Under the pieces are notes generated by a model. It ran no database searches. It was not told where the DNA came from and worked only from the letters and a program-made list of their open reading frames with translations. The position numbers and the translations under genes are program-made. From the NCBI GenBank assembly GCA_945877575.1, contig CAMDUE010000002.1, positions 197,861 through 261,860 of the forward strand: a stretch of 64,000 nucleotides of DNA, read 5' to 3'. This stretch comes from Chitinophaga pinensis. GTDB taxonomy: Bacteria; Bacteroidota; Bacteroidia; NS11-12g; UBA955. Shown one piece after another: positions 3,729 through 55,116 of this stretch (within the stretch, counting starts at the first letter, position 1; each line of letters starts with the position of its first letter).

Positions 3729-4858
3729 TTGGAAAGAAATTAGTAATAATTAGTCATACTTTACACGCCATCAATGAGCGCAGTGAGGTTGTAGGTTGGG
3801 GGCCAACGGTGGCAGAAATAAATTATTTGTCTGACCATTGGAGCGATGTTGTACATGTGGCATGTTTCGGTCAAGAAAATGCCAATGCAAGTATGAAAAG
3901 TTATTCCAATAAAAATATTCGATTTAGCCCAATTCCCACTTTTGGTGGTTTAAGAATAATTGATAAGGTTTCGGTGTTTACAAATGCATTTACCGTTATC
4001 CGAGTAATACTAAAAGAATTAAAAGGAGCGAGTCACGTGCAGATTCGTGTACCAATGGGTATTGGGGTATATGTTTTACCTTTATTCCTTTTTATACCTA
4101 GGAAATTCACTTTGTGGGTCAAATATGCCAATAATTGGGGGCATGTTTCTAGTTCATTAGGGTATCGTTTTCAGCGGTGGTTTTTAGAAAAGAAGTTTTT
4201 GAATTGCGCTGTAACAATAAATGGATTTTGGCCAAATCAAAAGAAGCACTTACAGAGCTTTGAAAATCCATGCATAACAGAAGAACAGAATAAAATAGGC
4301 CAATTAATAAATAAAGAGTTTGATAAAGAATTTAAAGTGGTTTTTGCGGGTCGAATAGATTCTGAAAAGGGCTTGGACTTCTTATTAGAGATAATTCCAA
4401 AGCTCCCCAATGAAAAAATACAAGAATGGGTATTTATTGGTGATGGATCATTAAGAGAAAAACTAGAAATTGAATTTAAAAAGGTGAACATCAACACTAG
4501 ATTTTTGGGATTTGTGGAACAAGAATTAGTTCATAAAGAACTTCAAGAAGCACATTTTCTCGTATTACCTAGCAAATCGGAGGGATTTCCCAAAGTAGTT
4601 GCTGAAGCTTGGAACTACGGTTGTATACCCATTTGCAGTGCAGTTGGAAGCATTCCTCATTATCTGGAAAATGAAAAAAACGGGTTCTTAATGAGCGAAT
4701 TAAATTCTATTTCTTTGCTTCAGACCATTAATGTTGCATTTTTTTTGAATTCAAAGGAATTGAAAAAAATAGCGAAAAATGGCTCTATTGGATCAACTGA
4801 ATTTAGATTTGAAAATTATTTAAAGAATCTGGAGGAAAAGATATTTCATGGTAATTGA
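3719..4858 (+). CDS. Glycosyltransferase family 1/4
   Basis: VVFAGRIDSEKGLDFLLEII...EGFPKVVAEAWNYGCIPICSAVGSIPHYL. Confidence 0.7.
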   Translation: MPLIGKKLVIISHTLHAINERSEVVGWGPTVAEINYLSDHWSDVVHVACFGQENANASMKSYSNKNIRFSPIPTFGGLRIIDKVSVFTNAFTVIRVILKELKGASHVQIRVPMGIGVYVLPLFLFIPRKFTLWVKYANNWGHVSSSLGYRFQRWFLEKKFLNCAVTINGFWPNQKKHLQSFENPCITEEQNKIGQLINKEFDKEFKVVFAGRIDSEKGLDFLLEIIPKLPNEKIQEWVFIGDGSLREKLEIEFKKVNINTRFLGFVEQELVHKELQEAHFLVLPSKSEGFPKVVAEAWNYGCIPICSAVGSIPHYLENEKNGFLMSELNSISLLQTINVAFFLNSKELKKIAKNGSIGSTEFRFENYLKNLEEKIFHGN

Positions 4859-16259: not shown

Positions 16260-16386
16260 CCGAGTTTGGCGCCGTTTTACTTCCGAGTTTGGCACTGTTT
16301 TACTTCCGAGTTTGGCGTTTTTTTAAAATACCCCCTACCAACTACCAGGTACCATCTACCAGGTACTAGGTACCAGGTACCAGGTA
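16260..16386. repeat. 23-bp direct repeats (CCGAGTTTGGCRCYGTTTTACTT, about 2.6 copies) followed by a TACCAGGTA / CTACC hexamer array
   Basis: Directly visible in the divergent intergenic region. The array is the reverse-strand version of the GGTAGN family found elsewhere in the window. Confidence 0.8.
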
Positions 16387-23961: not shown

Positions 23962-25076
23962 AAAGAAGTGCATTCATAAAGATAGTTGGGAGTGGCGTTG
24001 TTGCAGGGTCAATCGGTTCAATGTTTGAATCCTGCTCTGTAAATCAGACCAAGAAATATTCTGATGATGTATTGGTAGTAGTGAGAGTGAAAGGTGGAAT
24101 GGATGGATATCATTTGATTTCTCCTAAGGAGAATGATTTGCTCCTAAAATTACGGCCCAATATTCAAAAGTCTATTGAACAAAAAGGAATAAATTACCGG
24201 AATAATTGGTTTATAAATCCAAATTTTGCTGTAATAGCAGATCTAAATGAGAAGGGTTGGCTTCAAATCATCCCAAATGTTGGATATTCTGATTATAATA
24301 GATTGTCTCATTTTAAAGCACAAGATTATTGGGAAACAGGAAGTGTTGTAGGTGATAAAGTTCAACATAGGACGGGGTGGGCTGGAAGGTTAGTTGATAA
24401 CAATATTATTCAAGTTAATGGGAACAAATCACCTATTTTAATAATTGACAATGAGCAAACATTGTTTGATAAAGGAGAAAATAGTTCAGGAGTGTATTAC
24501 ACCCCATTTAATACCTATTCTAATTTATTTCCCTTAGTTGAGGATTGGATTAATGAGAATAAAAATAGCTTAGAGAATAAGCAGATTTATCAGAGAGTCG
24601 AAGAGCAATATAGAATAAATCAATTATTAAAAGAAACAAGTCCAAATTCTGTGTCGTCCAAGGATATGAAGGGAAAGTTGGATCAGATTGCTGATTGCAT
24701 TGAGAAGGAATTGCCGTTTAGGGTATACAATTTAACTCAAAGTGGATATGATACTCATCACAAACAGACAATTAGATTAGAGCCATTAGCCTTAGACTTA
24801 TTCAATGGATTAAATCAATTTGCCGAGCGTCTTCAACAGGGAAATAATTGGGGGAGAGTAAAGGTATTGGTATACACTGAATTTGGAAGGACAATTGCTG
24901 AAAACAGTAATGGCGGAACAGATCACGGAACGGCAAATCATACATATTTATTAGGTGGTAATCTTGGAGATAAATGGTTAAATCCTTCTTTTGAATTTAA
25001 TACAATGAAAATTGCGGGTAATGATTATTTGACAATCAATGAGGATTTTAGAGAAATATACAAGAGTTTAATTTGA
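23958..25076 (+). CDS. DUF1501 family protein (sulfatase-like, Tat-signal-like N-terminus)
   Basis: NGGTDHGTANHTYLLGGNLG motif. N-terminal MKRSAFIKIVGSGVVAG. Confidence 0.6.
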   Translation: MKRSAFIKIVGSGVVAGSIGSMFESCSVNQTKKYSDDVLVVVRVKGGMDGYHLISPKENDLLLKLRPNIQKSIEQKGINYRNNWFINPNFAVIADLNEKGWLQIIPNVGYSDYNRLSHFKAQDYWETGSVVGDKVQHRTGWAGRLVDNNIIQVNGNKSPILIIDNEQTLFDKGENSSGVYYTPFNTYSNLFPLVEDWINENKNSLENKQIYQRVEEQYRINQLLKETSPNSVSSKDMKGKLDQIADCIEKELPFRVYNLTQSGYDTHHKQTIRLEPLALDLFNGLNQFAERLQQGNNWGRVKVLVYTEFGRTIAENSNGGTDHGTANHTYLLGGNLGDKWLNPSFEFNTMKIAGNDYLTINEDFREIYKSLI

Positions 25077-25081
25077 TTTAG

Positions 25082-26116
25082 TTATTCCATTCTCTCCCAA
25101 GTGCTTTTTAGAACTTTTGTTTTGAGGCCGTGTTTTTCGGCGAGGTAGCGCGCGAAGACGGCAGAGTAGCCGTGGGTGACGGAAATGGTGTGGGCTTCGG
25201 TGGCGAGGCAGGCGGTTTCGAGTTCTTGGAAGTCGGCGTGGTCGCTGAGAACGAATCCGCGGTCAAAGTTTCCCCAACGGCGGGAACCGCGAAGGGCCAT
25301 CCAGCCGGAGCAGGAAATTGTTAGGTGACGAGGGTCTTGTGGCGAGGGACTGGTGTCTATATTTTGGGTGTTAGGGGTCGGGTGTCGGGATTCGGAGGGG
25401 GTCGGGTTACGGGAGTCGGTGGGGTTGCTGGAGATGAGGATGTGCTTGGAGGTGGGGCGTTGGTTTTTGGTGGTAGGGTAAATGGGGGGAAGGAAGATAT
25501 TGAAGCCGTCACGGTTGAGGGCTTGGGTTGTGTCGGCGATGGTTTTGGTGACGTAGAGGGGGAGGTCTTGGAGGTGATGGATGAGACGCTGGGCTTTTCC
25601 GAGGGAGTAGGCTGAGATGATGAGGTTTTCATCGTTGTTGTGGAAGTATTCGCGGATGTCGTTGAAGATATCGGCTTGGGGTGTCCATCGAAAAACGGGG
25701 AGTCCGAAGGTGCTTTCGGTGATAAAGTGGTGGCATTTCACGGGTTCGAATGGGGTGGAGATGCCGTCATTGTTGAGTTTATAGTCCCCCGAAACGACCC
25801 AAATTTCGCCTTGATGTTCTAGTCGGATTTGCGCGGAACCGGGTATGTGTCCGGCGGGATGAAAGGAAATGTTGACGCCGTTGATGCTGATGGTTTGGCT
25901 GAAGGGAAGGGTTTGGAGGGAGATGTGTTGACCGAGACGGAGTTTCAGGATGTGTTCGTTGCCCTGGGCGGCGAGGTAGTGTTTGTGGTTGGGTCGGGCG
26001 TGATCAGCGTGGGCGTGGGTGATGAGGGCTTTGTTGACGGGCTTGTGGGGATCTATGTAGACATCGGCGGCGGGGCAGTAGAGGCCGGATGGGGTGGAGG
26101 TTAGTAGTTGGTACAT
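25082..26116 (-). CDS. Ligase-associated DNA damage response exonuclease (MBL-fold)
   Basis: GLYCPAADVYIDPHKPVNKALITHAHADHA N-terminus and HxHxDH metallo-beta-lactamase motif. An ATP-dependent DNA ligase gene lies nearby. Contains an in-frame low-complexity insert. Confidence 0.7.
   Translation of the reverse strand: MYQLLTSTPSGLYCPAADVYIDPHKPVNKALITHAHADHARPNHKHYLAAQGNEHILKLRLGQHISLQTLPFSQTISINGVNISFHPAGHIPGSAQIRLEHQGEIWVVSGDYKLNNDGISTPFEPVKCHHFITESTFGLPVFRWTPQADIFNDIREYFHNNDENLIISAYSLGKAQRLIHHLQDLPLYVTKTIADTTQALNRDGFNIFLPPIYPTTKNQRPTSKHILISSNPTDSRNPTPSESRHPTPNTQNIDTSPSPQDPRHLTISCSGWMALRGSRRWGNFDRGFVLSDHADFQELETACLATEAHTISVTHGYSAVFARYLAEKHGLKTKVLKSTWERME
25325..25480. repeat. G-rich heptamer array (GGGTGTC/GGGATTC/GGGTTAC ...) embedded in-frame in the exonuclease CDS
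   Basis: Seen directly. Encodes TDSRNPTPSESRHPTPNTQ... on the minus strand. Confidence 0.7.
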
Positions 26117-26160
26117 GGTAGATGGTACATGGTAGATGGTAGATGGTACATGGTAGGGGG
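26101..26160. repeat. GGTACATGGTAGATGG hexamer array at the exonuclease start
   Basis: ggtacatggtagatggtacatggtagatggtagatggtacatggtagggggtagggg. Confidence 0.8.
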
Positions 26161-26171
26161 TAGGGGATATT

Positions 26172-26210
26172 AAAAAAACCCCGAGGTGTTGCCCCGGGGT
26201 TTTTTGTTTT
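26172..26210. terminator. Bidirectional intrinsic terminator hairpin
   Basis: A7-CCCCGAGG-tgttg-CCCCGGGG-T6. The 8-bp stem has one mismatch. The element lies just downstream of the S46 peptidase stop on the minus strand. Confidence 0.6.
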
Positions 26211-26222
26211 TGGTGGGTTTGG

Positions 26223-28391
26223 TTATTTCACCAAGGTCATTTCGTTGACGATGTTGGTGGCGCCGCCGAGTTTGTCGATGATGAACAACACGTAGCGTAT
26301 GTCAACGGAGATGGTGCGCTGTAGGGCGGGCATGAATCCGAAGTCAGAAGCGATGGCTTCCCAGTTTCCGTCGAAAGCAATTCCTATAAGCTCGCCGCGG
26401 CCGTTGATGACGGGTGAACCCGAGTTTCCGCCGGTGATGTCGTTGTTGCTCAAGAAGCAAGCGTGAAGATCGCCGGTAGTGGGGTCAGCGTATTGGCCGA
26501 AGTCTTTGTTTTTAATTAATTCTATCAATGCATCTGGTGCGTCGAATTCGAAGTCGCCGGGGATGTATTTTTCCATGATGCCGCGAGAAGAGGTGTAGTA
26601 GTTGTACTTTACCGCGTCTTTGGCGTTGTAACTTTCAATGGTTCCGTAGCTCAAACGCATGGTGGCGTTGGCATCAGGAGCGGTTACTTTTTCGGGATAC
26701 ATTTCCGCTTGAGCGGACAAAAACAAACGGTTAGCGCGGTCCAAACGACTGTTGATGTCAGCGGTGATAGGCGCTAAGTCTTTGCGTAGGATGCTCACAT
26801 AGCCGTTTACGATGGCGAACAACGGATCTTTTGCAAGTGCAGAAGCATTAGCAGAAGACATTAATTTTTTGAGCTTTACAGGATTTGAGAAAGCGCTCTT
26901 TGCCCAAACTTGGTCAGCCATTGCTTGGTAGTTTTTACCGTGCTTGGCAGCTAATTTCTTCAAATTTTCAGGCAGGTATTTGTTGTCTAAATCCTCCAAA
27001 AAGTGGCGGAAAATCACTGCAATTACTCGGCGTTCGATGTCGGAGTTGAATTCTTTGTAATTTTCGTCAATGCCGGCAGCAAATTCTGCGGACATGGCTT
27101 TTCCTTTGTCGTTGGTTTTGTCAAGAAGGGCTGTGTAAATGCGCATGGCTTGCATGGCATTCATCATGGGCACGCTGTTGGCGATACCATCTTGAAGGTA
27201 GACAGAGTATAGTCCGTATTTGTTAAGGTCTTCGTAGGCGCGGTCGTAAAGGGAGGTCACTTCACCGTAAACTTCTTCTTTTTTATTGTCGCGAACCCAC
27301 TGTTCGAAGGCGCGTTCTTGAGCTTTGCGGCGGGCGTAAATTTCGGGTTTAGAAAGTTCTTTCGCTTCACCGTTGAACTTGTTCCAGTAGTTTCCGATGC
27401 CGGCCAATTTCGCAGAGTACATCAAGCGTACGTCTTTGTCAGCCTTCATGTAGGTTTCGTAAACGTCCATGATGTCGCGGCGCAATTGCACACGCATTGG
27501 ACGCTCTTTTCCTGCCAAGTATTTGATTCCCTCGGAATAAGTATAGCGGGTGGTGCGGCCGGGATATCCCATGGTCATAGCAAAATCACCTTCTTTCACG
27601 CCTTTCAAGCTCACCGGAAGGTAGTGCTTGGGGGTGAAGGGCTTGTTGGACGTGCTGTAATCAGCGGGCTTGTTGTCGGCACCTGCATAAACGCGGAACA
27701 TAGAGAAGTCGCAGGTATGGCGTGGCCATCTCCAGTTGTCGGTTTCACCTCCGAATTTTCCTACGTTTTCTGGGGGAGTACCCACCAGGCGGATGTCGCG
27801 GTACACCTCGTAGTACATAGCAAGGTATTGGTTTCCGTTAGAGAACACGGCGATATCAACTACGTAGTTCTTTTTCTCGTCGCCAAGGGCTTCAACCAAC
27901 GCATTTTGGGTGGCTTTGAAGTTTTCGGCAACGGCTTTGGTGCGAGATGCTTCGTCTTGGTTGATGCTGGTATTTGCAAGAACGCGGCTGGTAACGTCTT
28001 CAATTTTGCGGAGCAGTCCGATTTGGAAAGCGACTTTACGCTCTTCAGATTGGGACTTAGCCCAGAATCCGTTAGAAAGGATATTGTCTTGAGGGGTAGC
28101 GATGCTTTGGATGGCATCATAACCACAGTGGTGGTTGGTGAGGAACATACCTTGTGAGGAGATGATTTCACCGGAGCAGAACATTCTGCCGTTTTGCATG
28201 AGTCGAACGATGGCATCTTTGGTAGAAGCATTGTTTATGGAGTAAATATCTTCTGCGGAGAGTGTCATTCCGCGGGCCTGCATTTTATCTTGAATTTTAG
28301 ACAAGAGGGTCAGTGGCCACATCCCTTCATCGGCGCGCAAGCTAAGGAAAGAGGTTGCGGCGAGTAATAAACTGAGGAATTTTTTGCTCAT
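26223..28391 (-). CDS. S46 family dipeptidyl-peptidase (DPP7/DPP11-like)
   Basis: Signal peptide then ADEGMWPL. TNHHCGYD (His). GGNSGSPV (Ser). 722 aa. Confidence 0.85.
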   Translation of the reverse strand: MSKKFLSLLLAATSFLSLRADEGMWPLTLLSKIQDKMQARGMTLSAEDIYSINNASTKDAIVRLMQNGRMFCSGEIISSQGMFLTNHHCGYDAIQSIATPQDNILSNGFWAKSQSEERKVAFQIGLLRKIEDVTSRVLANTSINQDEASRTKAVAENFKATQNALVEALGDEKKNYVVDIAVFSNGNQYLAMYYEVYRDIRLVGTPPENVGKFGGETDNWRWPRHTCDFSMFRVYAGADNKPADYSTSNKPFTPKHYLPVSLKGVKEGDFAMTMGYPGRTTRYTYSEGIKYLAGKERPMRVQLRRDIMDVYETYMKADKDVRLMYSAKLAGIGNYWNKFNGEAKELSKPEIYARRKAQERAFEQWVRDNKKEEVYGEVTSLYDRAYEDLNKYGLYSVYLQDGIANSVPMMNAMQAMRIYTALLDKTNDKGKAMSAEFAAGIDENYKEFNSDIERRVIAVIFRHFLEDLDNKYLPENLKKLAAKHGKNYQAMADQVWAKSAFSNPVKLKKLMSSANASALAKDPLFAIVNGYVSILRKDLAPITADINSRLDRANRLFLSAQAEMYPEKVTAPDANATMRLSYGTIESYNAKDAVKYNYYTSSRGIMEKYIPGDFEFDAPDALIELIKNKDFGQYADPTTGDLHACFLSNNDITGGNSGSPVINGRGELIGIAFDGNWEAIASDFGFMPALQRTISVDIRYVLFIIDKLGGATNIVNEMTLVK

Positions 28392-28413
28392 GGTGCGAAG
28401 ATAGTAAAAATTA

Positions 28414-28560
<147 letters not shown>

Positions 28561-28642
28561 CGGATAGTGTGGGGAAGTGGTTTTATGTTTGCGGTTTGAA
28601 GGCATGGGATATTTGTACGGATAAAATACGTACATTTGTTGA

Positions 28643-28933
28643 ATGGAAAATAAGATGGAACGAATTGAGTTGAGGGTGAGCAAGTCGGAAAAAATGATAT
28701 TACAGCGGGCGGCAGAAATATTGGGTTTCGGGTCATTGAGTGCCTTTTTATTATCGGAAGTTCGTCCTAAAGCAGAGGAGGTAGTGAAGAGAGAGAGTAC
28801 AATAAGATTAAATTTGGAAGACTCTTTCAAGATCATGGAGTATCTTGAAAGGGGGGAAGTGGAGAATGGTGCTTTGAAAAAGGCGAGGGAAATGTACGGT
28901 CAAGTGGTGAAAGATGAAGGAATTCCGATTTGA
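28643..28933 (+). CDS. DUF1778 family antitoxin (TacA-like, RHH)
   Basis: RIELRVSKSEKMILQRAAEILGFGSLSAFLLSE. 96 aa. Overlaps the downstream GNAT gene by 20 bp. Confidence 0.7.
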   Translation: MENKMERIELRVSKSEKMILQRAAEILGFGSLSAFLLSEVRPKAEEVVKRESTIRLNLEDSFKIMEYLERGEVENGALKKAREMYGQVVKDEGIPI

Positions 28934-29402
28934 GAAACTGGATGTAAAAAGGCACGACAGAAAATCATTTGTTTCTGGAAACGAAGAATTAGATCAGTTT
29001 TTTCAAACCCAGGCCAGACAGCAAATGGAGAAGCGTTTGAGTGTCTGCTTTGTCATGTTAAATGGCGGATCAAAAATTATTGGATTTTATACATTAAGTT
29101 CTGCAAGTGTAGAAGCAAATGAAAGTAGAATTTCGAGTTCAAAATATGTAAGCTTACCTGTGGTTTTGATTGGTAGACTGGCTGTACATTCTCAGTTTCA
29201 AAAGCAGGGTTTAAGTGGATTGATGTTGGTTAATATCATTGAAAGAGTTAGAAAATTATCGGAGAGTGAAATTGGGGTTAAGGGCATTTTCGTTGAGCCC
29301 AAATCCGAGGAAATCTCATTGTACTACCTTAAATATGGATTTTTGAAGCTGGAAAAAGGGGTGTTTTATCCTTTCGGTAAAAATTCAAGTAATTCTGGAT
29401 AA
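28914..29402 (+). CDS. GNAT family acetyltransferase toxin (TacT-like)
   Basis: 162 aa GNAT, translationally coupled to the DUF1778 gene. N-terminal KLDVKRHDRKSFVSGNEELDQFF is typical of TacT/KacT. Confidence 0.7.
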   Translation: MKEFRFEKLDVKRHDRKSFVSGNEELDQFFQTQARQQMEKRLSVCFVMLNGGSKIIGFYTLSSASVEANESRISSSKYVSLPVVLIGRLAVHSQFQKQGLSGLMLVNIIERVRKLSESEIGVKGIFVEPKSEEISLYYLKYGFLKLEKGVFYPFGKNSSNSG

Positions 29403-30905
29403 CAGTTCTTCAAGGGTGGCGATGTCTTTGACGGATTTATCGCGGCGCCAGCGCACGATGCGAGGGAAACGAACGGCGATGCCGCTTTTATGTCGGGTGC
29501 TACGATTGATTCCTTCGAAGGCGAGTTCGAAGACGAGTTCGGCGTCTACACTTTTTACAGGGCCGAAACTTTCACGGGTGTGGAGTTTGATCCATTTATT
29601 GACTTCTAGAATTTCAGCGTCAGTGAGTCCGGAATAGGCTTTAGCAAACGGTACGAGTTCCTCGCCTTTGTAAATGGCGAAGGTAAAATCGGTATATAGG
29701 TTGGCGCGACGACCGTGTCCGCGTTGGGCGTAGATGAGAACGGCATCAACAGTGTCTGCGTCGACTTTCCATTTCCACCAATCGCCGCGTTTACGTCCAA
29801 TTCCATAGGCTGAATCTTTGCGTTTGATCATGAGTCCTTCGCTTCTTATTTGGGAGGATTCATTTCTGATTTTCTGGAGTTCTTCAAAGTCTTTGGGATG
29901 AAAAACGGGACTGGGCTGTATGTGAGTGTTTGGTGATGGGAATAGATTGTCTAGTTGTTGTCGACGATTGAAAAGGGGTTCCTGGCGAAGGTCTTGACCG
30001 TTAATTTCGAGGAGGTCATAGGCTAAAAACACGACAGGGTAGTCTGTGAGAGTTTTTTTTCCGGGGGACTTTCTTCCGAGTCTTTTTTGCAGGTCTTGAA
30101 ACGGTCTTGGGAGTTGAAGTTCAAAGTCCCAACAAAGGATTTCCCCATCGAGGGCGCCCGAAAAAGCATCCCAAGAAAGCATGGAGGAAGCAAGTTCAGG
30201 AAATTGGTGGGTGATGATGTCTTCGCCGCGTGACCAGAGGTTTATGGAGTTGTTGCGTTTGATGATTTGCGCGCGGATGCCATCCCATTTAGGCTCTATT
30301 TGATAATTTGTAAGTGGATGAATATCTGTTGATTGAGGATCTTCATTGAAGGGAGACGCAAGGAAAAAAGGGTATGGTTTGGTAGAATTTAGATGGGGTT
30401 TTGGTGAGATGATGAGGTCTTGGTAGTTGGAGTTTTGCACGGTCCAATTTCCCATCAATCGGAGGTTGAGCTCGTCTTTTTCGATGCCTGTGTGAGCGTG
30501 AAGGGCTTGAACGAGAAGTCCTTGAGAGACGCCAAGTCGGAAGCCGCCGGTGAGGAGTTTGATTGATGGTAGTTGGTAGGGGGTAGAGGGTAGGGGGTAG
30601 AGGGACTGTGAGTTTTGGAGGATGAGGTGGATGGTTTCGGCGAGGTCACCTACTACGGAGTAGGATTCTTCGAAGAGCCAATCGGGGATTTGGGCGGTTT
30701 GGATGGCCCATTGTTTGAGTTCGGATAGTTTGATTTGTCGTTTGGGTCGGCGGCCGGTGAAGATTGCGATGACCATGAGTTTGTCAGGGTCTGGGGCTTG
30801 GTTGAAATAATGGGTTAGGGCTTGCACCTTACGGGAGTTTTTGGTGGTGGAGTCGAGTTCGTAGAAAAGTTTGGAAAAGAGATCAGGAACTTCGAAGATG
30901 TGCAT
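29385..30905 (-). CDS. ATP-dependent DNA ligase (ligase-associated DNA damage response type)
   Basis: N-terminal FSKLFYELDSTTKNSRKVQALTHYF. Motif I EPKWDGIRAQI (the adenylated Lys). 506 aa. Contains an in-frame GGTAGN array. Confidence 0.8.
   Translation of the reverse strand: MHIFEVPDLFSKLFYELDSTTKNSRKVQALTHYFNQAPDPDKLMVIAIFTGRRPKRQIKLSELKQWAIQTAQIPDWLFEESYSVVGDLAETIHLILQNSQSLYPLPSTPYQLPSIKLLTGGFRLGVSQGLLVQALHAHTGIEKDELNLRLMGNWTVQNSNYQDLIISPKPHLNSTKPYPFFLASPFNEDPQSTDIHPLTNYQIEPKWDGIRAQIIKRNNSINLWSRGEDIITHQFPELASSMLSWDAFSGALDGEILCWDFELQLPRPFQDLQKRLGRKSPGKKTLTDYPVVFLAYDLLEINGQDLRQEPLFNRRQQLDNLFPSPNTHIQPSPVFHPKDFEELQKIRNESSQIRSEGLMIKRKDSAYGIGRKRGDWWKWKVDADTVDAVLIYAQRGHGRRANLYTDFTFAIYKGEELVPFAKAYSGLTDAEILEVNKWIKLHTRESFGPVKSVDAELVFELAFEGINRSTRHKSGIAVRFPRIVRWRRDKSVKDIATLEELLSRIT
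30568..30605. repeat. (GGTAGN)6 array in-frame inside the ligase CDS
   Basis: ggtagttggtagggggtagagggtagggggtagaggg. Encodes PLPSTPYQLPS on the minus strand. Confidence 0.8.
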
Positions 30906-30906
30906 G

Positions 30907-30921
30907 TTGCGAATTTCGCAA
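30907..30921. promoter_or_regulatory. Perfect palindrome TTGCGAATTTCGCAA (TTGCG-W5-CGCAA), candidate operator
   Basis: Lies 1 bp upstream of the ligase ATG and 65 bp upstream of the wecB ATG. The same half-sites occur at 38981 and 39022. Confidence 0.4.
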
Positions 30922-30986
30922 ATTTTGGCGGGGAGTTTTGTGAAAAATGCAAGAACTTAGAAAATTGAATGACTTAACTTTGCACC

Positions 30987-32081
30987 ATGAAAATCACGTT
31001 GGTTGCGGGGGCGAGACCCAACTTTATGAAGATAGCTCCAATCCTTAGGGCAATTGAGGGGGCGGCGATTCGTGGGGAAGATATTCAATATCGATTGGTG
31101 CATACTGGACAGCACTACGACAAGGCAATGTCGGGTAGCTTCTTTGAGCAATTGGGAATTCCTGAGCCAAACGTGAATTTGGAATGTGGAGGTGGAAGTC
31201 ATGCAGAGCAGACTGCGGCTATTATGGTTGCGTTTGAGAAAGAGTTGATGGCACACCCTTGCGATTGGGTGGTGGTGGTTGGAGATGTTACTTCTACAAT
31301 GGCCTGTTCAATTTCAGCTAAGAAGTTACATATTAAGGTTGCGCACGTAGAGGGAGGAATCAGAAGCGGTGATATTACCATGCCCGAAGAGATCAATCGT
31401 TTGGTGACAGACAGCATCACGGATGTGTTTTTTACCACATCGGAGGTGGCTAACAGTAATTTGAGAAAAGCTGGGGTATCGGAGGAGAGCATTGTTTTTG
31501 TGGGTAATACCATGATTGACACGTTGTTGAGGCATGAAAATGATTTTGTAGCACCTGCATTTTGGGAGGCTGAGTCTTTGAAGAAGGGTGACTATTTGGT
31601 GATGACCTTGCATAGGCCATCGAATGTGGATGATGCTGATCAGTTGAGGTCTATTTTCGAGGTGATTGATGATGAATTGAAAGATCATAAAGTGGTTTTT
31701 CCAGTACATCCGAGAACCCGAAAAAACATGGAAAGTTTTGGAATTAAGCCTATGAATGTGGTGATGGCTGAGCCTTTGGGGTATTTTGAATTCAATTATT
31801 TGGTGAAAAATGCCAAAGGGGTGATTACCGATTCAGGGGGAATTACAGAAGAGACCACTGTGATGGGTGTTCCGTGTATCACTATGAGGAATAGCACCGA
31901 AAGACCGGAGACGGTTGATATTGGTACCAATGAGTTGATAGGAACCGACCCTGAAAATTTGAGAAAAGCATTGAAACAACTGCTTTCGGGCCAATGGAAA
32001 AAAGGAAATATTCCTCCAATGTGGGACGGTAAAACTGCTGAGCGAATCGTGGAGTGGTTTTCTCTAAATTTGCAAAAATGA
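30987..32081 (+). CDS. wecB: UDP-N-acetylglucosamine 2-epimerase (non-hydrolysing)
   Basis: MKITLVAGARPNFMKIAPI...HTGQHYD. 364 aa. Confidence 0.9.
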   Translation: MKITLVAGARPNFMKIAPILRAIEGAAIRGEDIQYRLVHTGQHYDKAMSGSFFEQLGIPEPNVNLECGGGSHAEQTAAIMVAFEKELMAHPCDWVVVVGDVTSTMACSISAKKLHIKVAHVEGGIRSGDITMPEEINRLVTDSITDVFFTTSEVANSNLRKAGVSEESIVFVGNTMIDTLLRHENDFVAPAFWEAESLKKGDYLVMTLHRPSNVDDADQLRSIFEVIDDELKDHKVVFPVHPRTRKNMESFGIKPMNVVMAEPLGYFEFNYLVKNAKGVITDSGGITEETTVMGVPCITMRNSTERPETVDIGTNELIGTDPENLRKALKQLLSGQWKKGNIPPMWDGKTAERIVEWFSLNLQK

Positions 32082-34399
32082 AAATTTCCGTTAATTGGTT
32101 AAAATCTTTGGTTCCGGTGGAGGAAAGCGCGCAGCAAATTGCTGATCGATTGTCGGTTTCGGGACTAGAAGTGGAGCATATAGAAGAGTGGGAGAGTTTG
32201 CCCGGAGGATTGAAGGGATTTATTGTTGGTCAGGTACTTACCTGCGAAAAACACCCTGATGCCGATCGGTTGAGCGTGACTACGGTTGATGTTGGAACGG
32301 GTGAACCCTTAAATATTGTTTGCGGTGCACCGAATGTGGCGGCGGGTCAGAAAGTGGTGGTAGCTACGGTGGGCACGGAAGTTAGAATCCCCGGAAAAGA
32401 ACCTTTTTCCATAGGAAAAAGTAAGATCCGCGGAGCAGTGAGTGAGGGCATGATTTGCGCTGAAGATGAGATGGGACTGAGTGCGGGGCACGATGGAATC
32501 ATGGTTCTTCCTGATTCTGTGGAAGTAGGAACTTTGGCAGCAGATTATTTTGGAATTGAGCGTGATACGGTTCTTGAAATTGGATTGACAGCGAACCGAG
32601 GAGATGCCGCTTCTCATTTGGGAGTTGCTCGCGATGTCGCTGCCTTATATGGGGCAACAGTATTGGAGCAAAAGTCACTGGATTTTGAGGGATTGGGCTC
32701 TGCTTCGAAGAGCATTGTTATAGAAAATAGCGAGCTTTGTCGCAGATATGTAGGAGTGAGTATTGAAGGGGTTGAAATTAAAGAGTCGCCCGAATGGTTG
32801 AAAAACCGTTTGAAAGCCATTGATATTGAGCCCAAGAACAATGTGGTGGATGCCACTAATTATGTGTTGCATCATTTTGGGCAGCCGGTTCATGCTTTTG
32901 ATGCTGATTGTTTGGGAAAAGAAGTTTATGTTAAGTTGGCTTCCGGCCAAAAGGCGGTTCTTTTGGATGGTAAGGAGATTGAATTGAAAACTTCAGACCT
33001 GGTGATTGCAGATGATCAAAATATTCTTGCATTGGCCGGGGTGATGGGCGGAAAATCATCGGCGGTGAGCGGTGAAACCAAGAATTTATTTTTGGAAATC
33101 GCGCATTTTCATCCCACTTATGTGAGAAAATCGGCCAAGGCGCATGTGATTAATACGGATGCTTCTTTCCGGTTTGAAAGAGGAATTGACATTGAGAACC
33201 TTCCCAATGTGGCTGGGTTCTTGTCAGGGTTGATTTTGGATATTTCCGGAGGACGTTTGGTTGGAATGACGGATGAATATCCTTCGGAAAGAGAAAAGAA
33301 AACCATCGATTTGAGTTTGGGTGCATTGAATCAATTTGCGGGATATACCTACGAAGTGGCAGATGTGGAGCGGATCTTGAGCAGTTTGGGATTTGAAGTT
33401 CAAGGTGCGAGCGAAGGACATTGGATGGTGGACGTTCCAGGTTGGCGCAACGATGTTGAGCAGGTGGTTGACTTGTACGAAGAGGTCATGCGGATATACG
33501 GTTACGACCGAATTCCGATGAGCGGAAAAATGCAGGTGTCGTTGGGTGATTTCAGCGGCATGGAGCGCAAGAAAAAGGAGAATATTACTCGCAACTATTT
33601 GGTTGATAGAGGTTTATTTGAAGCACAAACGAACAGTTTGGTATCGCCTGAATGGTATAATAGTGAGAGTTTGGTTGGATTAAGCAATCCATTGAGCGCG
33701 GACATGTCTGTGATGCGGGAGAGTTTGATTCCGGGTCTTTTGCAGTCGGTGGCGTACAATCAAAACAGGCAAGCCCGCAGGGTTCAGTTGTTTGAATTCG
33801 GACGTGTGTACGGGAAGAGCGATTCTGGAGAGTTTAAGGAAACGCCGGTGTTGGCCATTGTTTTATGGGGCTCGAAAGATGTGGAGTCTTGGGAAGGCCG
33901 CGAGGAAAAGGTTGATTTTTTCAGCTTGAAGCGTTTGGTTTCTGGACTTTTAGCGCGTTTGGATAGTGGTTTGTCGGTGGCAGATTGCGAAATCAAGCGT
34001 GTTTCTGGGGCGTGGATGAAGAAAGCTGATGTTTCGGGTGAAGTATGGTCAGTAGAAATACCATTGAAGAAATTGTACAAGCCTGGTCGGAAGCAAGTTC
34101 GTTACGAAGAGGCATCGAAGTTCTTCCAAGTGAGGAGGGATTTGAGTTTGGTGGTAGATAAAGCGGTTGGATTTGCTCAATTGGAGACGTTGGTAAAGTC
34201 TTCTAAAATGAAGAATTTGGTTGAGTTTAAGGTTTTTGATGTATTTGAAGGCAAACCTTTGGATGAGGGCAAAAAAGCCATTTCATTGAGTTTTGCGTTT
34301 AATAAGAAAGACGAACCCATGAAAGAGGGCGAAGCCGATGCAAGTATGGATCGACTGATGAAGTCTTTTGAAGAAATGGGTGCGTTGATTCGCAGATAA
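32078..34399 (+). CDS. pheT: Phenylalanine--tRNA ligase beta subunit
   Basis: MKISVNWLKSLV N-terminus. tRNA-binding, B3/4 and FDX-ACB domains. Start taken at the internal Met, which overlaps the wecB stop (ATGA). Confidence 0.9.
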   Translation: MKISVNWLKSLVPVEESAQQIADRLSVSGLEVEHIEEWESLPGGLKGFIVGQVLTCEKHPDADRLSVTTVDVGTGEPLNIVCGAPNVAAGQKVVVATVGTEVRIPGKEPFSIGKSKIRGAVSEGMICAEDEMGLSAGHDGIMVLPDSVEVGTLAADYFGIERDTVLEIGLTANRGDAASHLGVARDVAALYGATVLEQKSLDFEGLGSASKSIVIENSELCRRYVGVSIEGVEIKESPEWLKNRLKAIDIEPKNNVVDATNYVLHHFGQPVHAFDADCLGKEVYVKLASGQKAVLLDGKEIELKTSDLVIADDQNILALAGVMGGKSSAVSGETKNLFLEIAHFHPTYVRKSAKAHVINTDASFRFERGIDIENLPNVAGFLSGLILDISGGRLVGMTDEYPSEREKKTIDLSLGALNQFAGYTYEVADVERILSSLGFEVQGASEGHWMVDVPGWRNDVEQVVDLYEEVMRIYGYDRIPMSGKMQVSLGDFSGMERKKKENITRNYLVDRGLFEAQTNSLVSPEWYNSESLVGLSNPLSADMSVMRESLIPGLLQSVAYNQNRQARRVQLFEFGRVYGKSDSGEFKETPVLAIVLWGSKDVESWEGREEKVDFFSLKRLVSGLLARLDSGLSVADCEIKRVSGAWMKKADVSGEVWSVEIPLKKLYKPGRKQVRYEEASKFFQVRRDLSLVVDKAVGFAQLETLVKSSKMKNLVEFKVFDVFEGKPLDEGKKAISLSFAFNKKDEPMKEGEADASMDRLMKSFEEMGALIRR

Positions 34400-34409
34400 A
34401 ATCAAAAAT

Positions 34410-35132
34410 GTGAAAACCATAACCGTAGATATTGGAAATACCCGATCTAAATATGTGGTTTGGAGCAATGAAGGCTTGATGCTTGAGCATGGAAGCGATG
34501 TGTTGATGGTTGATTTGTTGGCGCGGTTTCCAGATTCAAAGATGGTAGTGTCTTGCGTGGGTAAACGGAACGAAGTTGTGCCTGTTGAAGCGAAATTTTT
34601 AGAGGTTGGAGGCCGTTTTCCTTTTGAAATTGGTATTGAGCAACCCCATACTTTGGGTGTTGATCGATTGGCAGGCATGTTGGGTGCTTTTCATAAGTTT
34701 TCGGAAAGCGATTTGTTGGTAATTGATTTGGGAAGCTGTGTAACCTATGATTATTTGTATTTAAAAGGCGATCATGGATTGCCCATTTATGCGGGTGGTG
34801 CAATTTCGCCGGGTTTGAGATTTCGATATGTGGTGATGTCTGAACATACGGCGGCACTTCCATATTTGGGTGATGAAGTTTCGAATTTTCTTCATGTTGT
34901 GAATGATGTAGAGAGAAATACCGTGACTGCTATGCATTCTGGAGTGCTTTTGGGTTTTTTGGATGAAGTTTCGGGAAGGGTTGATCGATTTTTTAAAGAA
35001 TATCAAGATGGATTGGTCGTTTTTACGGGTGGAGATGCCGAGTTGATTCATGAAAAGTTGGGTAATCGCTGGAAATCAAAGATATTTGTGGAACCGTGGT
35101 TGGTTCACTACGGACTTTATCATGCGTTATAA
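34410..35132 (+). CDS. coaX: Type III pantothenate kinase
   Basis: MKTITVDIGNTRSK N-terminus. 240 aa. Confidence 0.85.
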   Translation: MKTITVDIGNTRSKYVVWSNEGLMLEHGSDVLMVDLLARFPDSKMVVSCVGKRNEVVPVEAKFLEVGGRFPFEIGIEQPHTLGVDRLAGMLGAFHKFSESDLLVIDLGSCVTYDYLYLKGDHGLPIYAGGAISPGLRFRYVVMSEHTAALPYLGDEVSNFLHVVNDVERNTVTAMHSGVLLGFLDEVSGRVDRFFKEYQDGLVVFTGGDAELIHEKLGNRWKSKIFVEPWLVHYGLYHAL

Positions 35133-39037: not shown

Positions 39038-39089
39038 AGATGTAAAATCAATGCGTTGCAACTTTGCATCGAACCTTTATTCAAATCTT

Positions 39090-49341: not shown

Positions 49342-52300
49342 TTAAAATGCTGCTTCAACGCCAATTAGGAACCGGAAATCTACGAAGTTTTCTTGTGGAT
49401 TCACGGTATTTAGGAAAAATGGAAAATCAATTCTATATCGCATGGTTCTTGGAGAGTAAGAGTAGTTGCGATTGATGATTTTATTGTAATTATTGATGTT
49501 GATCCACGTTCCTATTCCGGCATCTGCGAGCAGGTTGCTGTTGTACCAATTATTTGATTTTTGGATTGCGATCAAACCTGCATCAGCGAATAAATAGGGT
49601 GAAAAAGAAATGAATTTATTTTTCAAAAAGGGCGAAAGTAACTTTCCGAAGTGCCATTCTGTGTTGATAGATATACCAGAAGTACCTCTAAAAAATGCCA
49701 TGATGCTGTCGTTTGATTTGATTCCAATGGCTCTTCCATGAAATCCTCTGAGGTTCAGTCCGCCACCTAAATGGGTGTAATTCGGTTGGATGTTTCCGAG
49801 ATTTCGAACCATCATATTTTGGAATTGAGTTTCAGGGTTGGCGCTTGATGTGTAAAGGGCTGATTCAGGTGATGGATTCGCACCTTGAGCTAATTGAGCG
49901 AATACTCTAGACTTGAAAGTGGTTGATTTAATAGGTTGTTGGTGTTTCCATTCTAGGTTAAACCAACCAAATTGTGTTTGGCTCCAAGGCGATATTAATC
50001 GGGTATCAACGGCAATGGTTCCTGACCTTGACCAACCTGAGTATTGGATGTTCCAAAACAGGTGGAAGTTGGTATTGGTTCTGTCAGACCAAGTACTTGC
50101 AGTGGGTAGATAACCATTGAAAAGGGAATTCTTGTTTATGATGGTTTCGGTGTTTGAACTAAGTGCCCTTAGGTCTTTTCCATAAAGTCCGAAGGTATGT
50201 TTCCCCAATTTCCATTTCCAACCTAGTATTGAGCTCAGACGTTGGTTTGAGGAGATGATTTCTGCAAAATATGTCCCTCCACCGCGTATGTCATGTTGCC
50301 AATTTACTAAACCATTGATGGTCTGGTGAGCGAATTTTATATAATTTAATGGGTAAATCTGATTATTAAGGGCATAATATATTCTGGCATCAAAAACATG
50401 TTTTCGGCTGGCATATTGTCCGGTAAATTTTGCACCAATCATGGTTCCAGAATACTGATTGTATGCAATTGCGGGTCTAATTAGTACTTCGTATGGTTCT
50501 AAAATATTGCTATTTGGACCTTGTCCTTGATCGAGTTTAAAGGAAATTTTCTTTTTCCAACGGTTATTCCTTCGGTCAATGTCGGCCAAAAGGTAGGTGG
50601 CGTCCAAGAAAATTTCTGTGAGTTCATGTTTGGGTTCAATGCTCACATTGATGGTAAAATCGCGGTTCAAACGTCCCCAAGAATTCCAAACCTTGGTTGA
50701 AAGCCTGTTAGGAATGATGTATTGATTTGTTGGGATGGTTAATTGGGTAAATATTAATTTTCCACTTTCGGTTCGTGTCAAAAGGTCTAAGTTCACGGGC
50801 ATGGTGAGATTTCCGTAGCGATGAACGGTGATTTTATATTGACCATTCTCGAGCTTTTTTACTTTTTTAATGCCGTAGTCAATGACTTCTTTCGATTCAA
50901 ACCATTGATCAAAGAACTTATTCAGATCAATTTGTGCTGATTGAATGACTGAATTTCGAAAATCTTCTATGTACGGATGCTTGAATTTCCATTGTTCCAC
51001 ATAGTTTTTCATGGCTATCGAGAAAATGGAATCCCCCAAGAAATAGCGCAAATTGTAGAGCATGGTAGCCGTTTTGTAGTATACATTTCCGTATCCGCCG
51101 CCATGTCCAACGGCCTCATGAAATTCATTACTATGGGTATTGAGACGTTCGTCTTCGCCATCAATGGCATCATCCAAATAGGGGCCAATGGCCCTGGAAT
51201 ATTCGGGAAATGGCTCTACTTTCAGCTCTTTCAGAGCTTCGGCCGTTAAAAATTGAGTGAATCCTTCGTCGAGAGCTGCCCGATAGGTTTCGTTGCTGCC
51301 CACCATTCCCATGAACCAATTGTGGGCCACTTCGTGTGCGATGAGTGCTCTGTGCGAGGGATAGGAACCGCCGCAGAGCGTGAGCATGGGGTATTCCATA
51401 CCATCAGCAGCGTCTGCCACCACAATTTTAGGGTATGCATACATCCCATAATTTCGGCTGTAAAAGGCAATGACTTCACTTAAATATTGCGCGGTTTTTG
51501 TCCAATTTTTGGCATTATGGGCTTGTGCGATTGCCACGCATTGAATTCCGTTCCATGTGACTTCGCTTATTCTGTAGGTTGGATCAGCTGTCCAAGCAAA
51601 ATCGTGAACGTTTTGAGCAAGGAAATGCCAAGTTTTGGTAGTTGGTAGGGGGTAGTTGGTAGTTGGTAGTTGGTAGGGGGTAGTTGGTAGGGGGGTGTTG
51701 GGTTTCGGGTTTTGGGTTTCGGGGGACGGGGAGCGGGAGTTGGGTTGGTTGATGTCAATGGCTTTTTTGAGATCATCGGGAAGTGCTTCTTCGCGGTTTA
51801 AGAGTAATCCGGTGGCTTCAACGATGTACTTTTCTGGGAGATTTAGTTTCACATCAAAGGTGCCAAAGTCGCCGTAAAATTCTTTTTCAAGGTGTTGGCT
51901 GGTTTCCCAAGTGAACTTTTGGTCATAGACGCAAATTCTTGGGTACCAATGAACACCGTTGAAATGTTTAACTCCATGATGATCAAACACTTTCATTCTC
52001 CGGCGAATGGATCCTCGATCAAAATAAGTCTTGAACCAAATTTCAAACACGCAAGAATCTCCTGATTGCAGAGGCTCAGGAAGATCAATTTTCATGATGG
52101 TATAATCAATCTGAGGATCTAAAATGACTTTTTTATAGGGTTTGGTTGATTTATTTCCTTCAATTTGAATCCATGTGATTTGTGTCCCCAAACCTTGTTT
52201 TTCGTAGTTGCCGTAGGTGGGTTTAATTTTATTTAGTTCGTAGAGTTTATCTGTTAAAGAACCTGGCTGAGTGGAGTTTTGATATAAATGAAAAAAAGCT

Positions 52301-52548
52301 TCATTCAGGGTATTGGGTGAGTTGTTGGTGTAAGTCAATCGAAGTTTACCCGTAATAACTTCCGAACTATCATCAAGACTTGCATCTATTTGATAGTGAA
52401 CTTTTTGTTGCCAGTAAGTGGTAGGTGGTAGATGGTAGGGGGTAGGGGGTACTTGGTAAATGGTAGGGGGTAGTTGGCCGTTGGTAGAGAGGAGTTTTGT
52501 GGGGAAGAGTGACCAGAAAAAGATGAGCAAAATCAAGCGCATTCTCAA
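49342..52548 (-). CDS. M1 family zinc metallopeptidase (secreted), with PT/Y-rich low-complexity linkers
   Basis: Signal peptide. HEVAHNWF...E (HEXXH-X18-E). 1068 aa. Two in-frame hexamer-repeat inserts. Confidence 0.8.
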   Translation of the reverse strand: MRMRLILLIFFWSLFPTKLLSTNGQLPPTIYQVPPTPYHLPPTTYWQQKVHYQIDASLDDSSEVITGKLRLTYTNNSPNTLNEAFFHLYQNSTQPGSLTDKLYELNKIKPTYGNYEKQGLGTQITWIQIEGNKSTKPYKKVILDPQIDYTIMKIDLPEPLQSGDSCVFEIWFKTYFDRGSIRRRMKVFDHHGVKHFNGVHWYPRICVYDQKFTWETSQHLEKEFYGDFGTFDVKLNLPEKYIVEATGLLLNREEALPDDLKKAIDINQPNSRSPSPETQNPKPNTPLPTTPYQLPTTNYPLPTTKTWHFLAQNVHDFAWTADPTYRISEVTWNGIQCVAIAQAHNAKNWTKTAQYLSEVIAFYSRNYGMYAYPKIVVADAADGMEYPMLTLCGGSYPSHRALIAHEVAHNWFMGMVGSNETYRAALDEGFTQFLTAEALKELKVEPFPEYSRAIGPYLDDAIDGEDERLNTHSNEFHEAVGHGGGYGNVYYKTATMLYNLRYFLGDSIFSIAMKNYVEQWKFKHPYIEDFRNSVIQSAQIDLNKFFDQWFESKEVIDYGIKKVKKLENGQYKITVHRYGNLTMPVNLDLLTRTESGKLIFTQLTIPTNQYIIPNRLSTKVWNSWGRLNRDFTINVSIEPKHELTEIFLDATYLLADIDRRNNRWKKKISFKLDQGQGPNSNILEPYEVLIRPAIAYNQYSGTMIGAKFTGQYASRKHVFDARIYYALNNQIYPLNYIKFAHQTINGLVNWQHDIRGGGTYFAEIISSNQRLSSILGWKWKLGKHTFGLYGKDLRALSSNTETIINKNSLFNGYLPTASTWSDRTNTNFHLFWNIQYSGWSRSGTIAVDTRLISPWSQTQFGWFNLEWKHQQPIKSTTFKSRVFAQLAQGANPSPESALYTSSANPETQFQNMMVRNLGNIQPNYTHLGGGLNLRGFHGRAIGIKSNDSIMAFFRGTSGISINTEWHFGKLLSPFLKNKFISFSPYLFADAGLIAIQKSNNWYNSNLLADAGIGTWININNYNKIINRNYSYSPRTMRYRIDFPFFLNTVNPQENFVDFRFLIGVEAAF
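51637..51750. repeat. (GGTAGN)n + (GGGTTTC)n composite array in-frame in the M1 peptidase CDS
   Basis: ggtagttggtagggggtagttgg...gggtttcgggttttgggtttcgggggacgggg. Encodes NPKPNTPLPTTPYQLPTTNYPLPTT. Confidence 0.8.
52419..52492. repeat. (GGTAGN)n array in-frame right after the M1 peptidase signal peptide
   Basis: gtggtaggtggtagatggtagggggtagggggtacttggtaaatggtagggggtagttgg. Encodes QLPPTIYQVPPTPYHLPPTTY. Confidence 0.8.
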
Positions 52549-54304: not shown

Positions 54305-54480
54305 TCCAAGGTAGTTGGTAGCAGGTAGTTGGTAGCAGGTAGTTGGTAGTTGGTAGCAGGTAGTTGGTAGTTGGTAGCTGGGCTCTGGCCCAAAACCCGG
54401 TACCCAAAACCCGAAACCCGATACCCGATACCCGATACCCGATACCTGAAACCTGATACCCGATACCCGGTACCCGATAC
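54305..54480. repeat. About 175-bp simple-repeat block: (GGTAGYWG)n then (CCCGATA/CCCGAAA)n
   Basis: Seen directly between convergent coaD and NUDIX genes. The minus strand is a (GGGTATC)n G4 motif. Confidence 0.85.
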
Positions 54481-55116
54481 CTAGTACCCAGTACCAACTA
54501 AATGCTTCTTGATGATATCGTGGATGCTGTGGTAGGACTGGAACTCAGAAGAGTTGAACCAGTCAAGTGGGGCGAAATTTGCTTCGGTGATGCCTTCTTC
54601 TTCTTGCGGTTTTAATGCGGCGGTGCCGCTGCTGTTCATTCTGTACCAGTGGGTTTCCTTTAGGAGAATGGCGTTGTCTTCGTAGTAGGCGTGGTAGGTT
54701 TCTCCGATTTTTTCGGAAATGTTGAGGTGATTGATGCCGGTTTCTTCCATCACTTCGCGAAGGGCGGCGGCAATTTGATCTTCGTGGCGTTCTATTTTGC
54801 CCTTGGGAAGATCCCAAACACCGTTGCGTTTGATGGTTAGTAATTCGTGGTTTTTGTTGAATACTAATCCTCCAGCGGCTTGAATAACGGTGTATTCTTC
54901 AATGAATTCTCTCAGTGTTTCTTGAGGTTCAGGGGTCATCAATCCGAAGGTCATGGGTTTGCCCAAGGCCTCGCTTGATATTAAGATGTTAAAACTTTTA
55001 TGGATTTCATCATCACCTATGAAATAAAAGTTTGGAATGCCTTTGAGAGCATCCAGAGAATCTGTGATGATCAACGCACCCTCATTGAAGTAGATTTTGT
55101 AAGTTTGCGGCTCCAT
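54481..55116 (-). CDS. NUDIX hydrolase
   Basis: Nudix box GKIERHEDQIAAALREVMEETGI. Confidence 0.8.
   Translation of the reverse strand: MEPQTYKIYFNEGALIITDSLDALKGIPNFYFIGDDEIHKSFNILISSEALGKPMTFGLMTPEPQETLREFIEEYTVIQAAGGLVFNKNHELLTIKRNGVWDLPKGKIERHEDQIAAALREVMEETGINHLNISEKIGETYHAYYEDNAILLKETHWYRMNSSGTAALKPQEEEGITEANFAPLDWFNSSEFQSYHSIHDIIKKHLVGTGY

Follow-up and report, generated by a model that had tools for sequence, protein, structure and literature searches.

In the stretch of DNA analysed here (64,000 nucleotides of contig CAMDUE010000002.1, positions 197,861 to 261,860 of assembly GCA_945877575.1, hereafter the window), which stems from an uncultured lineage of Bacteroidota with a record in metagenomes only, a G-rich segment is found on the template strand of the gene for a ligase-associated DNA damage response (LADR) exonuclease. 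Our analysis leads with high confidence to the view that this segment is a variable-number heptanucleotide tandem repeat of a family abundant in the lineage, that it sits in frame in a tolerant loop of the enzyme, and that its G-quadruplex (G4) motif is a by-product of the repeat. The gene had been named as a LADR exonuclease in the initial annotation, which was made from the letters alone, and this identity has been confirmed by the match to TIGR04122 (NCBIfam), where the whole-protein score of 358.8 bits exceeds the curated equivalog cutoff of 325 and residues 4-341 are aligned to profile positions 1-324 of 326. The catalytic motif set of the metallo-beta-lactamase (MBL)/beta-CASP fold (HxHxDH, the later His/Asp residues and motifs A-C) has been kept completely, and the residues H34, H36, D38, H39, H90, D111, E134, H293 and H315 are invariant among 118 homologues. 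Outside the array segment the gene is 96-98% identical in nucleotides to the close relatives compared below, with a ratio of nonsynonymous to synonymous substitution rates (dN/dS) of 0.08-0.20, and the enzyme has therefore been maintained in all compared lineages.

The initial annotation described the plus strand of this segment as a G4-forming sequence with at least eight tracts of three or more guanines and loops of 2-5 nt. Exactly eight such tracts have been located between 25366 and 25424 (starts at 25366, 25374, 25380, 25387, 25397, 25404, 25411 and 25421), the oligonucleotide form of the segment being d(GGGTGTTAGGGGTCGGGTGTCGGGATTCGGAGGGGGTCGGGTTACGGGAGTCGGTGGGG), while the loops are in fact 2-7 nt long and include two of 7 nt (ATTCGGA and AGTCGGT). 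In our regex scan a canonical G4 motif has been defined as (G3+ N1-7)x3 G3+, that is at least four tracts, for which 25366-25424 qualifies; the suggested check with a predictor has yielded a G4Hunter mean of 1.73, and ViennaRNA with DNA parameters assigns the segment -18.5 kcal/mol with G-quadruplex terms and -2.0 kcal/mol without them. Judged by these predictions, the segment can probably fold as a G-quadruplex once the template strand has become single-stranded. The G-rich strand is indeed the template strand, as had been stated, and the mRNA corresponds to the C-rich one. The plus strand of the gene contains 40.5% G, and at this level some canonical G4 motif appears in 56% of the dinucleotide-preserving shuffles of the gene, so that a minimal motif would mean little. 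It is this skew, making chance G4 motifs common, that would speak for a G-rich run arisen by chance in a gene so strongly skewed, but a run of eight tracts is reached in just 0.15% of the same shuffles. Together with its companion, an artefact of assembly or sequencing, this explanation can be regarded as effectively refuted: homologous arrays occur in other samples, and the window allele is identical base for base in two further independent assemblies (three in total) and is therefore no assembly artefact. Across the whole window four canonical G4 motifs have been observed against 0.66 expected, and all four coincide with heptamer arrays reported by Tandem Repeats Finder (TRF). The run of G3 tracts in the exonuclease gene is the automatic product of tandem GGGNNNN units.

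The heptamer nature of the segment becomes unambiguous only when relatives (referred to by L and P numbers) are taken together with the window. The periodicity of the window array is degenerate, with a lag-7 identity of 0.54 (mononucleotide-shuffle p ~0.015), TRF reports a period of 24 (= 7+7+10) at 25374-25424, and a strictly phased GGGN4 x4 pattern has no match in the exonuclease array. Read by eye, the coding strand resolves into ACC GACTCCC GTAACCC GACCCCC TCC GAATCCC GACACCC GACCCCT AACACCC, in which the 3-nt step is GGA/TCC. A unit profile built from 55 units reads G-W-N-A-C-C-C on the coding strand (GGGTNWC on the G-rich strand); its genic part comprises the exonuclease arrays of the window, L063, L001, L002 and L061, and its intergenic part the arrays at 54389-54481 of the window, 1794-1850 of L002, 9971-9997 of L004 and 9811-10002 of L001. 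Seven units (GTAACCC, GACACCC, GAATCCC, GACCCCC, GATACCC, GAAACCC and GTCACCC) are common to exonuclease and intergenic arrays, and the GWNACCC family is dispersed, occurring at 54389-54481 and 51693-51744 of the window and upstream of the exonuclease gene in L001, L002 and L004. Within the window and its relatives, arrays with periods of 7, 14, 21 or 28 nt number 1.6-12 per 10 kb; ~117 kb from seven distant Bacteroidota loci have yielded none.

The hypervariability of the segment is seen directly among the orthologues. Measured between the conserved flanks CACATCCTCATC... and ...TCCTGCTCCGGCTGGATG, it spans 147 nt in the window and in L063, where the array is accompanied by an older lineage-specific segment, 132 nt in L001 and L061 with the array only, 87 nt in L002 with a short array only, and 90 nt in L004, L058, L059, L060 and L062, which have no array; the P0007 allele is shorter than all others, and P0004, P0005 and P0122 are without the array. 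The L063 array equals that of the window in length, with 7 substitutions concentrated inside the array. From the conserved Pro to the invariant SGWM, the six allele types encode 8, 15, 16, 30, 30 and 35 aa, and the same loop has ~18 aa in typical family members. Compared with L004, which is the nearest array-free allele and the closest exonuclease orthologue (90% identity; CAYPBJ010000031.1, on a GTDB species representative), the window allele shows a net difference of +57 nt or 19 codons at about residues 233-253. The gene content and homologues of L004 are Bacteroidota-like. In a small sample of alleles taken from consensus assemblies, the reading frame has been kept in every allele recovered, including five loci obtained by a frame-blind search with the DNA flanks. 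Three proteins of 192-200 aa with 64% coverage (P0004, P0005 and P0007) had been considered as frameshifted alleles and have proved to be C-terminal fragments, that is three more in-frame alleles.

Alignment with orthologues, which had been proposed as the check on an insertion, shows that members of the family do not share the segment and that the closest relatives are polymorphic for it. An in-frame, repeat-derived segment has thereby been borne out, as its net length leaves the frame intact and it is missing from most orthologues. Of the roughly 50 low-complexity residues first described as the insert, the translation of 216-265 is correct, the insert itself amounts to 19 aa, and the loop exceeds the family norm by ~17 aa; TKNQRPTSKHILISSNP, a part of that peptide, aligns with ordinary family sequence. 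The opposite conclusion, that there is no insertion, which might be drawn from the length range of the family (~320-345 aa), has been rejected too, since the alignment shows the array replacing and extending a normally conserved stretch of 18 aa.

The alleles of the window, L063, L001 and L061 contain the canonical G4 motif. It is absent from those of L002, the L004 type and P0007, hence from three of the six allele types, and it is not conserved. The significance that the initial annotation implied for the G4 is at odds with this distribution. One could suppose that the template-strand G4 has been selected as a cis-regulatory element, which would tune the expression of the nuclease, and likewise of the ligase, by stalling RNA polymerase or the replisome. 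The eight tracts, the G4Hunter value and a predicted G4 energy far below that of any hairpin alternative would fit such a role, as would the presence of a G4 motif in the ligase gene too (30579-30604) and the G4 formation in vitro of related heptamers from Xanthomonas and Nostoc (PMC4692102). We nevertheless hold it to be improbable, because the motif is missing from several alleles of a gene that is 96-98% identical and because the same arrays stand in an unrelated peptidase gene and in intergenic spacers, both of which argue against a role specific to the exonuclease gene. Moreover, more than half of the shuffled genes contain some G4 motif, as given above, and the C-rich mRNA permits no RNA G4. 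There is no sign of selection on the G4 as a regulatory element of the exonuclease gene.

The copy number clearly differs between close relatives, and 7 is not a multiple of 3, so that the addition or removal of a single unit would shift the frame. A contingency (phase-variation) locus, in which the exonuclease or the ligase is reversibly switched off and a variable repair or mutator phenotype results, may therefore be envisaged, the more so as arrays lie in both repair genes and at the start codon of the exonuclease gene. Such switching is distinctly improbable: the recovered alleles are all in frame, the loci from the frame-blind search among them, the sequence downstream of the array is under purifying selection, and heterogeneous units lower slippage rates. 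With the Moxon-type contingency loci of host-adapted pathogens, the present arrays share the location of tandem repeats within open reading frames (ORFs) and the polymorphism of copy number between strains, whereas those loci consist of perfect repeats with out-of-frame alleles being common, and here the units are degenerate and all alleles seen are in frame.

Regarding the protein, the AlphaFold2 (AF2) model calculated with the 118 homologues has a predicted local distance difference test (pLDDT) score of 90.4 and a predicted template modelling (pTM) score of 0.88, and pLDDT falls below 50 at residues 238-257, in a loop between the beta-strands 226-229 and 264-269. The TIGR04122 family itself is without a solved structure; the nearest solved ones, by sequence and by fold, are the remote beta-CASP relatives CPSF73, Ysh1 and SNM1A, which are also the top Foldseek matches of the model. 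The domain limits of CPSF73 are well established. When these limits are combined with an alignment of the exonuclease to Ysh1 and CPSF73, the array loop is assigned to the beta-CASP insert domain rather than to the MBL core. Contrary to what had been claimed, the insert does not interrupt this core; it lies in a predicted disordered beta-CASP loop. In most family members this loop contains a conserved PPSA..W.KKF.PY stretch, which has been lost in the whole clade around the window. The older segment DTSPSPQDPRHL occurs in the alleles of the window, L063 and the L004 type and is absent from L001, L002, L061 and P0007. In L004, the tandem 14-mers AGTCCCTCGTCACA and AGACCCTCGTCACC match at 12 of 14 positions, which is not significant alone, and the older segment may, tentatively and by its sequence, be a decayed 14-nt (2x7) repeat.

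The beta-CASP domain contacts substrates or partners in other members such as CPSF73 and SNM1, and the position of the loop within this domain might suggest that the Pro/Thr/Ser-rich stretch has been selected as a functional low-complexity linker, either for flexibility or for the docking of the ligase or another partner. The distant homologues P0008, P0011 and P0012 also carry long inserts just upstream of the loop. These inserts are unrelated and point to a region that is generally permissive; those of P0008 and P0012 have been considered as heptamer-derived, which is contradicted by TRF finding no repeat in them, and they are unrelated in sequence. Since near-identical proteins have loops of anything between 8 and 35 aa, and since the loop is not conserved in sequence and is predicted to be disordered, selection for a linker appears very improbable.

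For a heptamer repeat in a tolerant loop, the following course can be proposed. The array would have arisen in, or been copied into, the insertion-tolerant loop of the exonuclease gene and would then have grown, shrunk and decayed via slipped-strand mispairing or recombination. Selection would keep only stop-free orientations with a net length that is a multiple of 3, within the disordered surface loop of the beta-CASP domain, and would leave an enzyme that is still under purifying selection with a harmless loop, rich in Pro/Thr/Ser/Asn and variable in length. The G4 on the template strand may add to the instability of the array. Slippage, the near-neutrality of the insert and the folding of the G4 with any effect on replication are what we infer from the pattern of alleles and from prediction.

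Several points weigh against this account. The length variation has been seen between consensus assemblies and not as ongoing slippage within a population, and alleles with and without the array are interspersed at similar synonymous divergence (dS), compatible with repeated gain as well as with repeated loss. Upstream of the exonuclease gene, relatives carry different unit families in either orientation, to which simple local slippage is poorly suited. The array is also imperfect, which should lower slippage, and the neutrality of the insert as well as the folding of the G4 are steps that we infer. One might instead imagine that arrays are actively seeded at recurrent sites, in which case those in the ligase and exonuclease genes and at the exonuclease start codon could turn DNA-repair capacity into a fast-evolving and possibly switchable trait; fork stalling induced by G4 or i-motif structures with template switching between arrays, or an unrecognised repeat-adding activity, could provide the route. 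The orthologous positions occupied by different unit families in either orientation hint at such seeding, as do the standing of the exonuclease and ligase genes as the most extreme composition outliers of the window and the fact that heptamers have settled independently in this loop region of L003, an orthologue of 70% identity. In L003 this region holds ACCAAAG x8.4 (4236-4294) and CTAAACT x2.3 (4323-4338), and the ACCAAAG/AAAGACC unit is also arrayed just upstream of its own gene (3524-3586). We attribute a small probability to active seeding.

The composition of the exonuclease gene sets it apart in the window, with a GC content of 55.7%, 40.5% C and 15.2% G on the coding strand, and 62% C (C3) and 6% G (G3) at third codon positions; the ligase gene follows as the second most extreme (C3 43%, G3 8%). 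All minus-strand genes of the window have C>G and all plus-strand genes G>C, and the cumulative GC skew climbs monotonically across the whole 64 kb. The GC content jumps from ~30-34% (1-25000) to 44-53% (25001-35000), with the step at the exonuclease gene. On the low-GC side, glycosyltransferase, epimerase and asparagine-synthase genes resemble a polysaccharide cluster, next to DUF1800 and DUF1501.

Table 1. Repeat arrays of the window and the genes that carry them (positions in the window; G4, G-quadruplex)
Feature	Position	Strand or context	Remarks
LADR exonuclease gene, MBL/beta-CASP fold, 344 aa	25082..26116	-	TIGR04122; host of the array
Older lineage-specific loop segment	25322..25357	-	Replaces the family-conserved W-x-KKF-x-PY stretch
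Degenerate heptamer array of the exonuclease gene, 8 units + 3-nt step	25366..25424	G-rich strand is + (template)	8-tract G4 motif; encodes ~P232-T250
CTACC-family array (CATCTAC / CATGTAC on the gene strand)	26104..26166	Runs into the exonuclease start codon	TRF period 7, 7.6 copies
Intergenic array TACCAGG	16336..16386	Between divergent genes	
Three adjoining intergenic arrays, AGTCCGA, GGTAGAG, GGACTAT	28420..28558	Upstream of the Dpp7-like peptidase gene	
ATP-dependent DNA ligase, LADR / cisplatin damage response type, 506 aa	29385..30905	-	NF006701 602 bits (cutoff 543); TIGR04120 547 bits (cutoff 400)
CTCTACC-family in-frame array in the ligase gene	30575..30604	Canonical G4 motif on + at 30579-30604	Encodes LYPLPSTPYQLPS; TRF, G4 regex
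M1 peptidase arrays TTGGTAG then GGGTTTY, in frame	51635..51744	ORF 49342-52548 (-)	Encode SPSPETQNPKPNTPLPTTPYQLPTTNYPLPTT; G4 motif 51690-51744
Second in-frame array, near the N-terminus of the M1 peptidase	52414..52477		Encodes QLPPTIYQVPPTPYHLPPTTY
Intergenic arrays GGTAGTT x10, ACCCGAT x12	54310..54481	Fill the spacer of convergent genes	

Further arrays of the window are collected in Table 1. The initial annotation had emphasised that both genes of the ligase/exonuclease pair carry repeat-derived inserts; both do, and the pair is not special in this respect, as the M1 peptidase gene carries two arrays and many others are intergenic. In the ligase, alleles of 506, 513, 514 and 518 aa and a longer one in L001 have been found, which differ exactly at the array, by 7-14 aa. 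The arrays of the M1 peptidase encode Pro/Thr/Tyr-rich segments with a period of 7 aa, and the ACCCGAT array at 54310-54481 shares its unit family with the exonuclease insert. All three array-bearing genes (exonuclease, ligase and M1 peptidase) lie on the minus strand, and their coding strands carry the arrays as CTACC or CCC. For the CTACC family this orientation is forced, because a heptamer array passes through all three frames and in one of them the GGTAG orientation reads TAG.

At the 5' end of the exonuclease gene, the ATG sits within an ATGTACC unit of the array at 26104-26166, for which other copy numbers have been found in L063 and L001. Other units hold two more ATGs, from which a short upstream frame runs to a TAA. 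A GC-rich hairpin with T7 behind it, probably the terminator of the Dpp7-like gene upstream, precedes the start of the array by ~10 nt; a scan for promoters and terminators around the exonuclease gene has yielded nothing above the shuffle expectation, and the hairpin with T7, noted by eye, has not been called by it.

The ligase gene lies 3.3 kb from the exonuclease gene on the same strand, the Dpp7-like peptidase gene and a TacA/GNAT pair standing between them, and is adjoined by genes for UDP-GlcNAc 2-epimerase, PheT and type III pantothenate kinase. The best named matches of PheT come from metagenome-assembled genomes of Bacteroidetes, Flavobacteriales or Bacteroidia, with no more than 59% identity. 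The Lhr-type DEXH helicase and PdeM of the LADR set have not been found near the ligase in the window, where the large ORFs tested gave no match to a helicase model, and their genes could be located elsewhere in the genome. The TacA-like antitoxin and the adjacent ORF of 162 aa (28643-29402, plus strand) lie between the Dpp7-like gene and the ligase gene and overlap the 3' end of the latter by 18 nt. From its context, the 162-aa product would be a GNAT-type toxin, and it is annotated as Acetyltransf_7 in L063, where the pair is present; in L001 the TacA pair is absent from that position, and the exonuclease gene is followed by an MNT/HepT pair instead.

A second beta-CASP protein of 478 aa is encoded at 43394-44830 on the plus strand and scores 323.6 bits against Cas14 (type VII CRISPR) and 258.9 bits against aCPSF1; each score falls far short of its curated cutoff, so that the protein is probably a ribonuclease of the RNase J/CPSF-like type. 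For two large plus-strand ORFs (39051-43244, 1397 aa; 57303-59984, 893 aa) no NCBIfam match has been obtained at E <= 1e-10. A repeat of another kind, with the 23-nt unit CCGAGTTTGGCGCTGTTTTACTT in ~2.9 copies, is located at 16260-16325 upstream of the minus-strand ORF 14950-16218, and its reverse complement has been found in L001 (18084-18148) upstream of a gene for an AAA_14/DUF4143 protein of 422 aa. Conserved in a 5' region, it might serve as an operator or binding array.

Dispersed G-rich heptamers with variable copy number have been described in Xanthomonas (GGGAATC, or (GGGANTN)n) and Nostoc (GGGGA(C/T)T), where they form G4 in circular dichroism (CD) experiments and where the intragenic share amounts to 7-11% in xanthomonads and to more in Nostoc (Rehm et al., 2015, PLoS One, PMC4692102). 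They are the closest known counterparts of the repeats considered here. In both cases, units of 7 nt combine a G3-4 tract with 3-4 further bases in heterogeneous or perfect arrays, which are dispersed over the genome, vary in copy number between close relatives and are mostly intergenic with an intragenic minority; ORFs avoid having the G-rich strand as their coding strand, and four or more units automatically give a G4 motif. They differ in the host, here an uncultured Bacteroidota lineage, in the unit GGGTNWC, in the coexistence with heptamer families that are not G4-forming (CTACC, ATAGTCC and TCGGACT), and in the series of in-frame alleles that has been well resolved within an enzyme loop; moreover, the published G4 have been established by CD, whereas that of the exonuclease array is predicted only.

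Among long simple sequence repeats (LSSR) with units of 5-11 nt, heptamers have been given as the commonest class in bacteria, according to the account of that survey in a later article (Mrazek et al., 2007, via PMC4679880). They include the short tandemly repeated repetitive (STRR) sequences of cyanobacteria, and TAACTGA repeats are known from Beggiatoaceae, Cyanobacteria and five Bacteroidetes (MacGregor, 2015, PMC4679880). Common to these and to the present arrays are lineage-restricted bursts, positions that are often just upstream of starts or downstream of stops, the possible presence of several families in one spacer, and the constraint that stop codons impose on orientation in coding DNA. 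In contrast, the unit sequences of STRR differ, and the window lacks TAACTGA, a search for two tandem units with one mismatch allowed having given no match. The published surveys also centre on intergenic arrays, whereas at least four arrays lie within ORFs in the 64 kb considered here. New here are the host lineage, the unit sequence, the in-frame allelic series in the loop of a repair enzyme and the independent occupation of the loop region in a more distant orthologue.

The G-rich heptamer repeats of Xanthomonas and Nostoc are thereby extended to an uncultured lineage of Bacteroidota, and the exonuclease offers a clean, sequence-resolved case of a genome-wide burst of 7-nt microsatellites that remodels protein loops while frame and fold are kept. 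In this lineage the repeats write Pro/Thr/Ser-rich peptides with a period of 7 aa into permissive loops of conserved enzymes. For annotation this implies a warning: where such lineages show low-complexity 'inserts' and G4 motifs, these derive from the repeats as by-products and are not devices specific to a gene. The allelic series, with no array, a short array or a long array in near-identical genes, constitutes a natural experiment on G4 repeats of the template strand with respect to replication, transcription and the stability of the repeats themselves.

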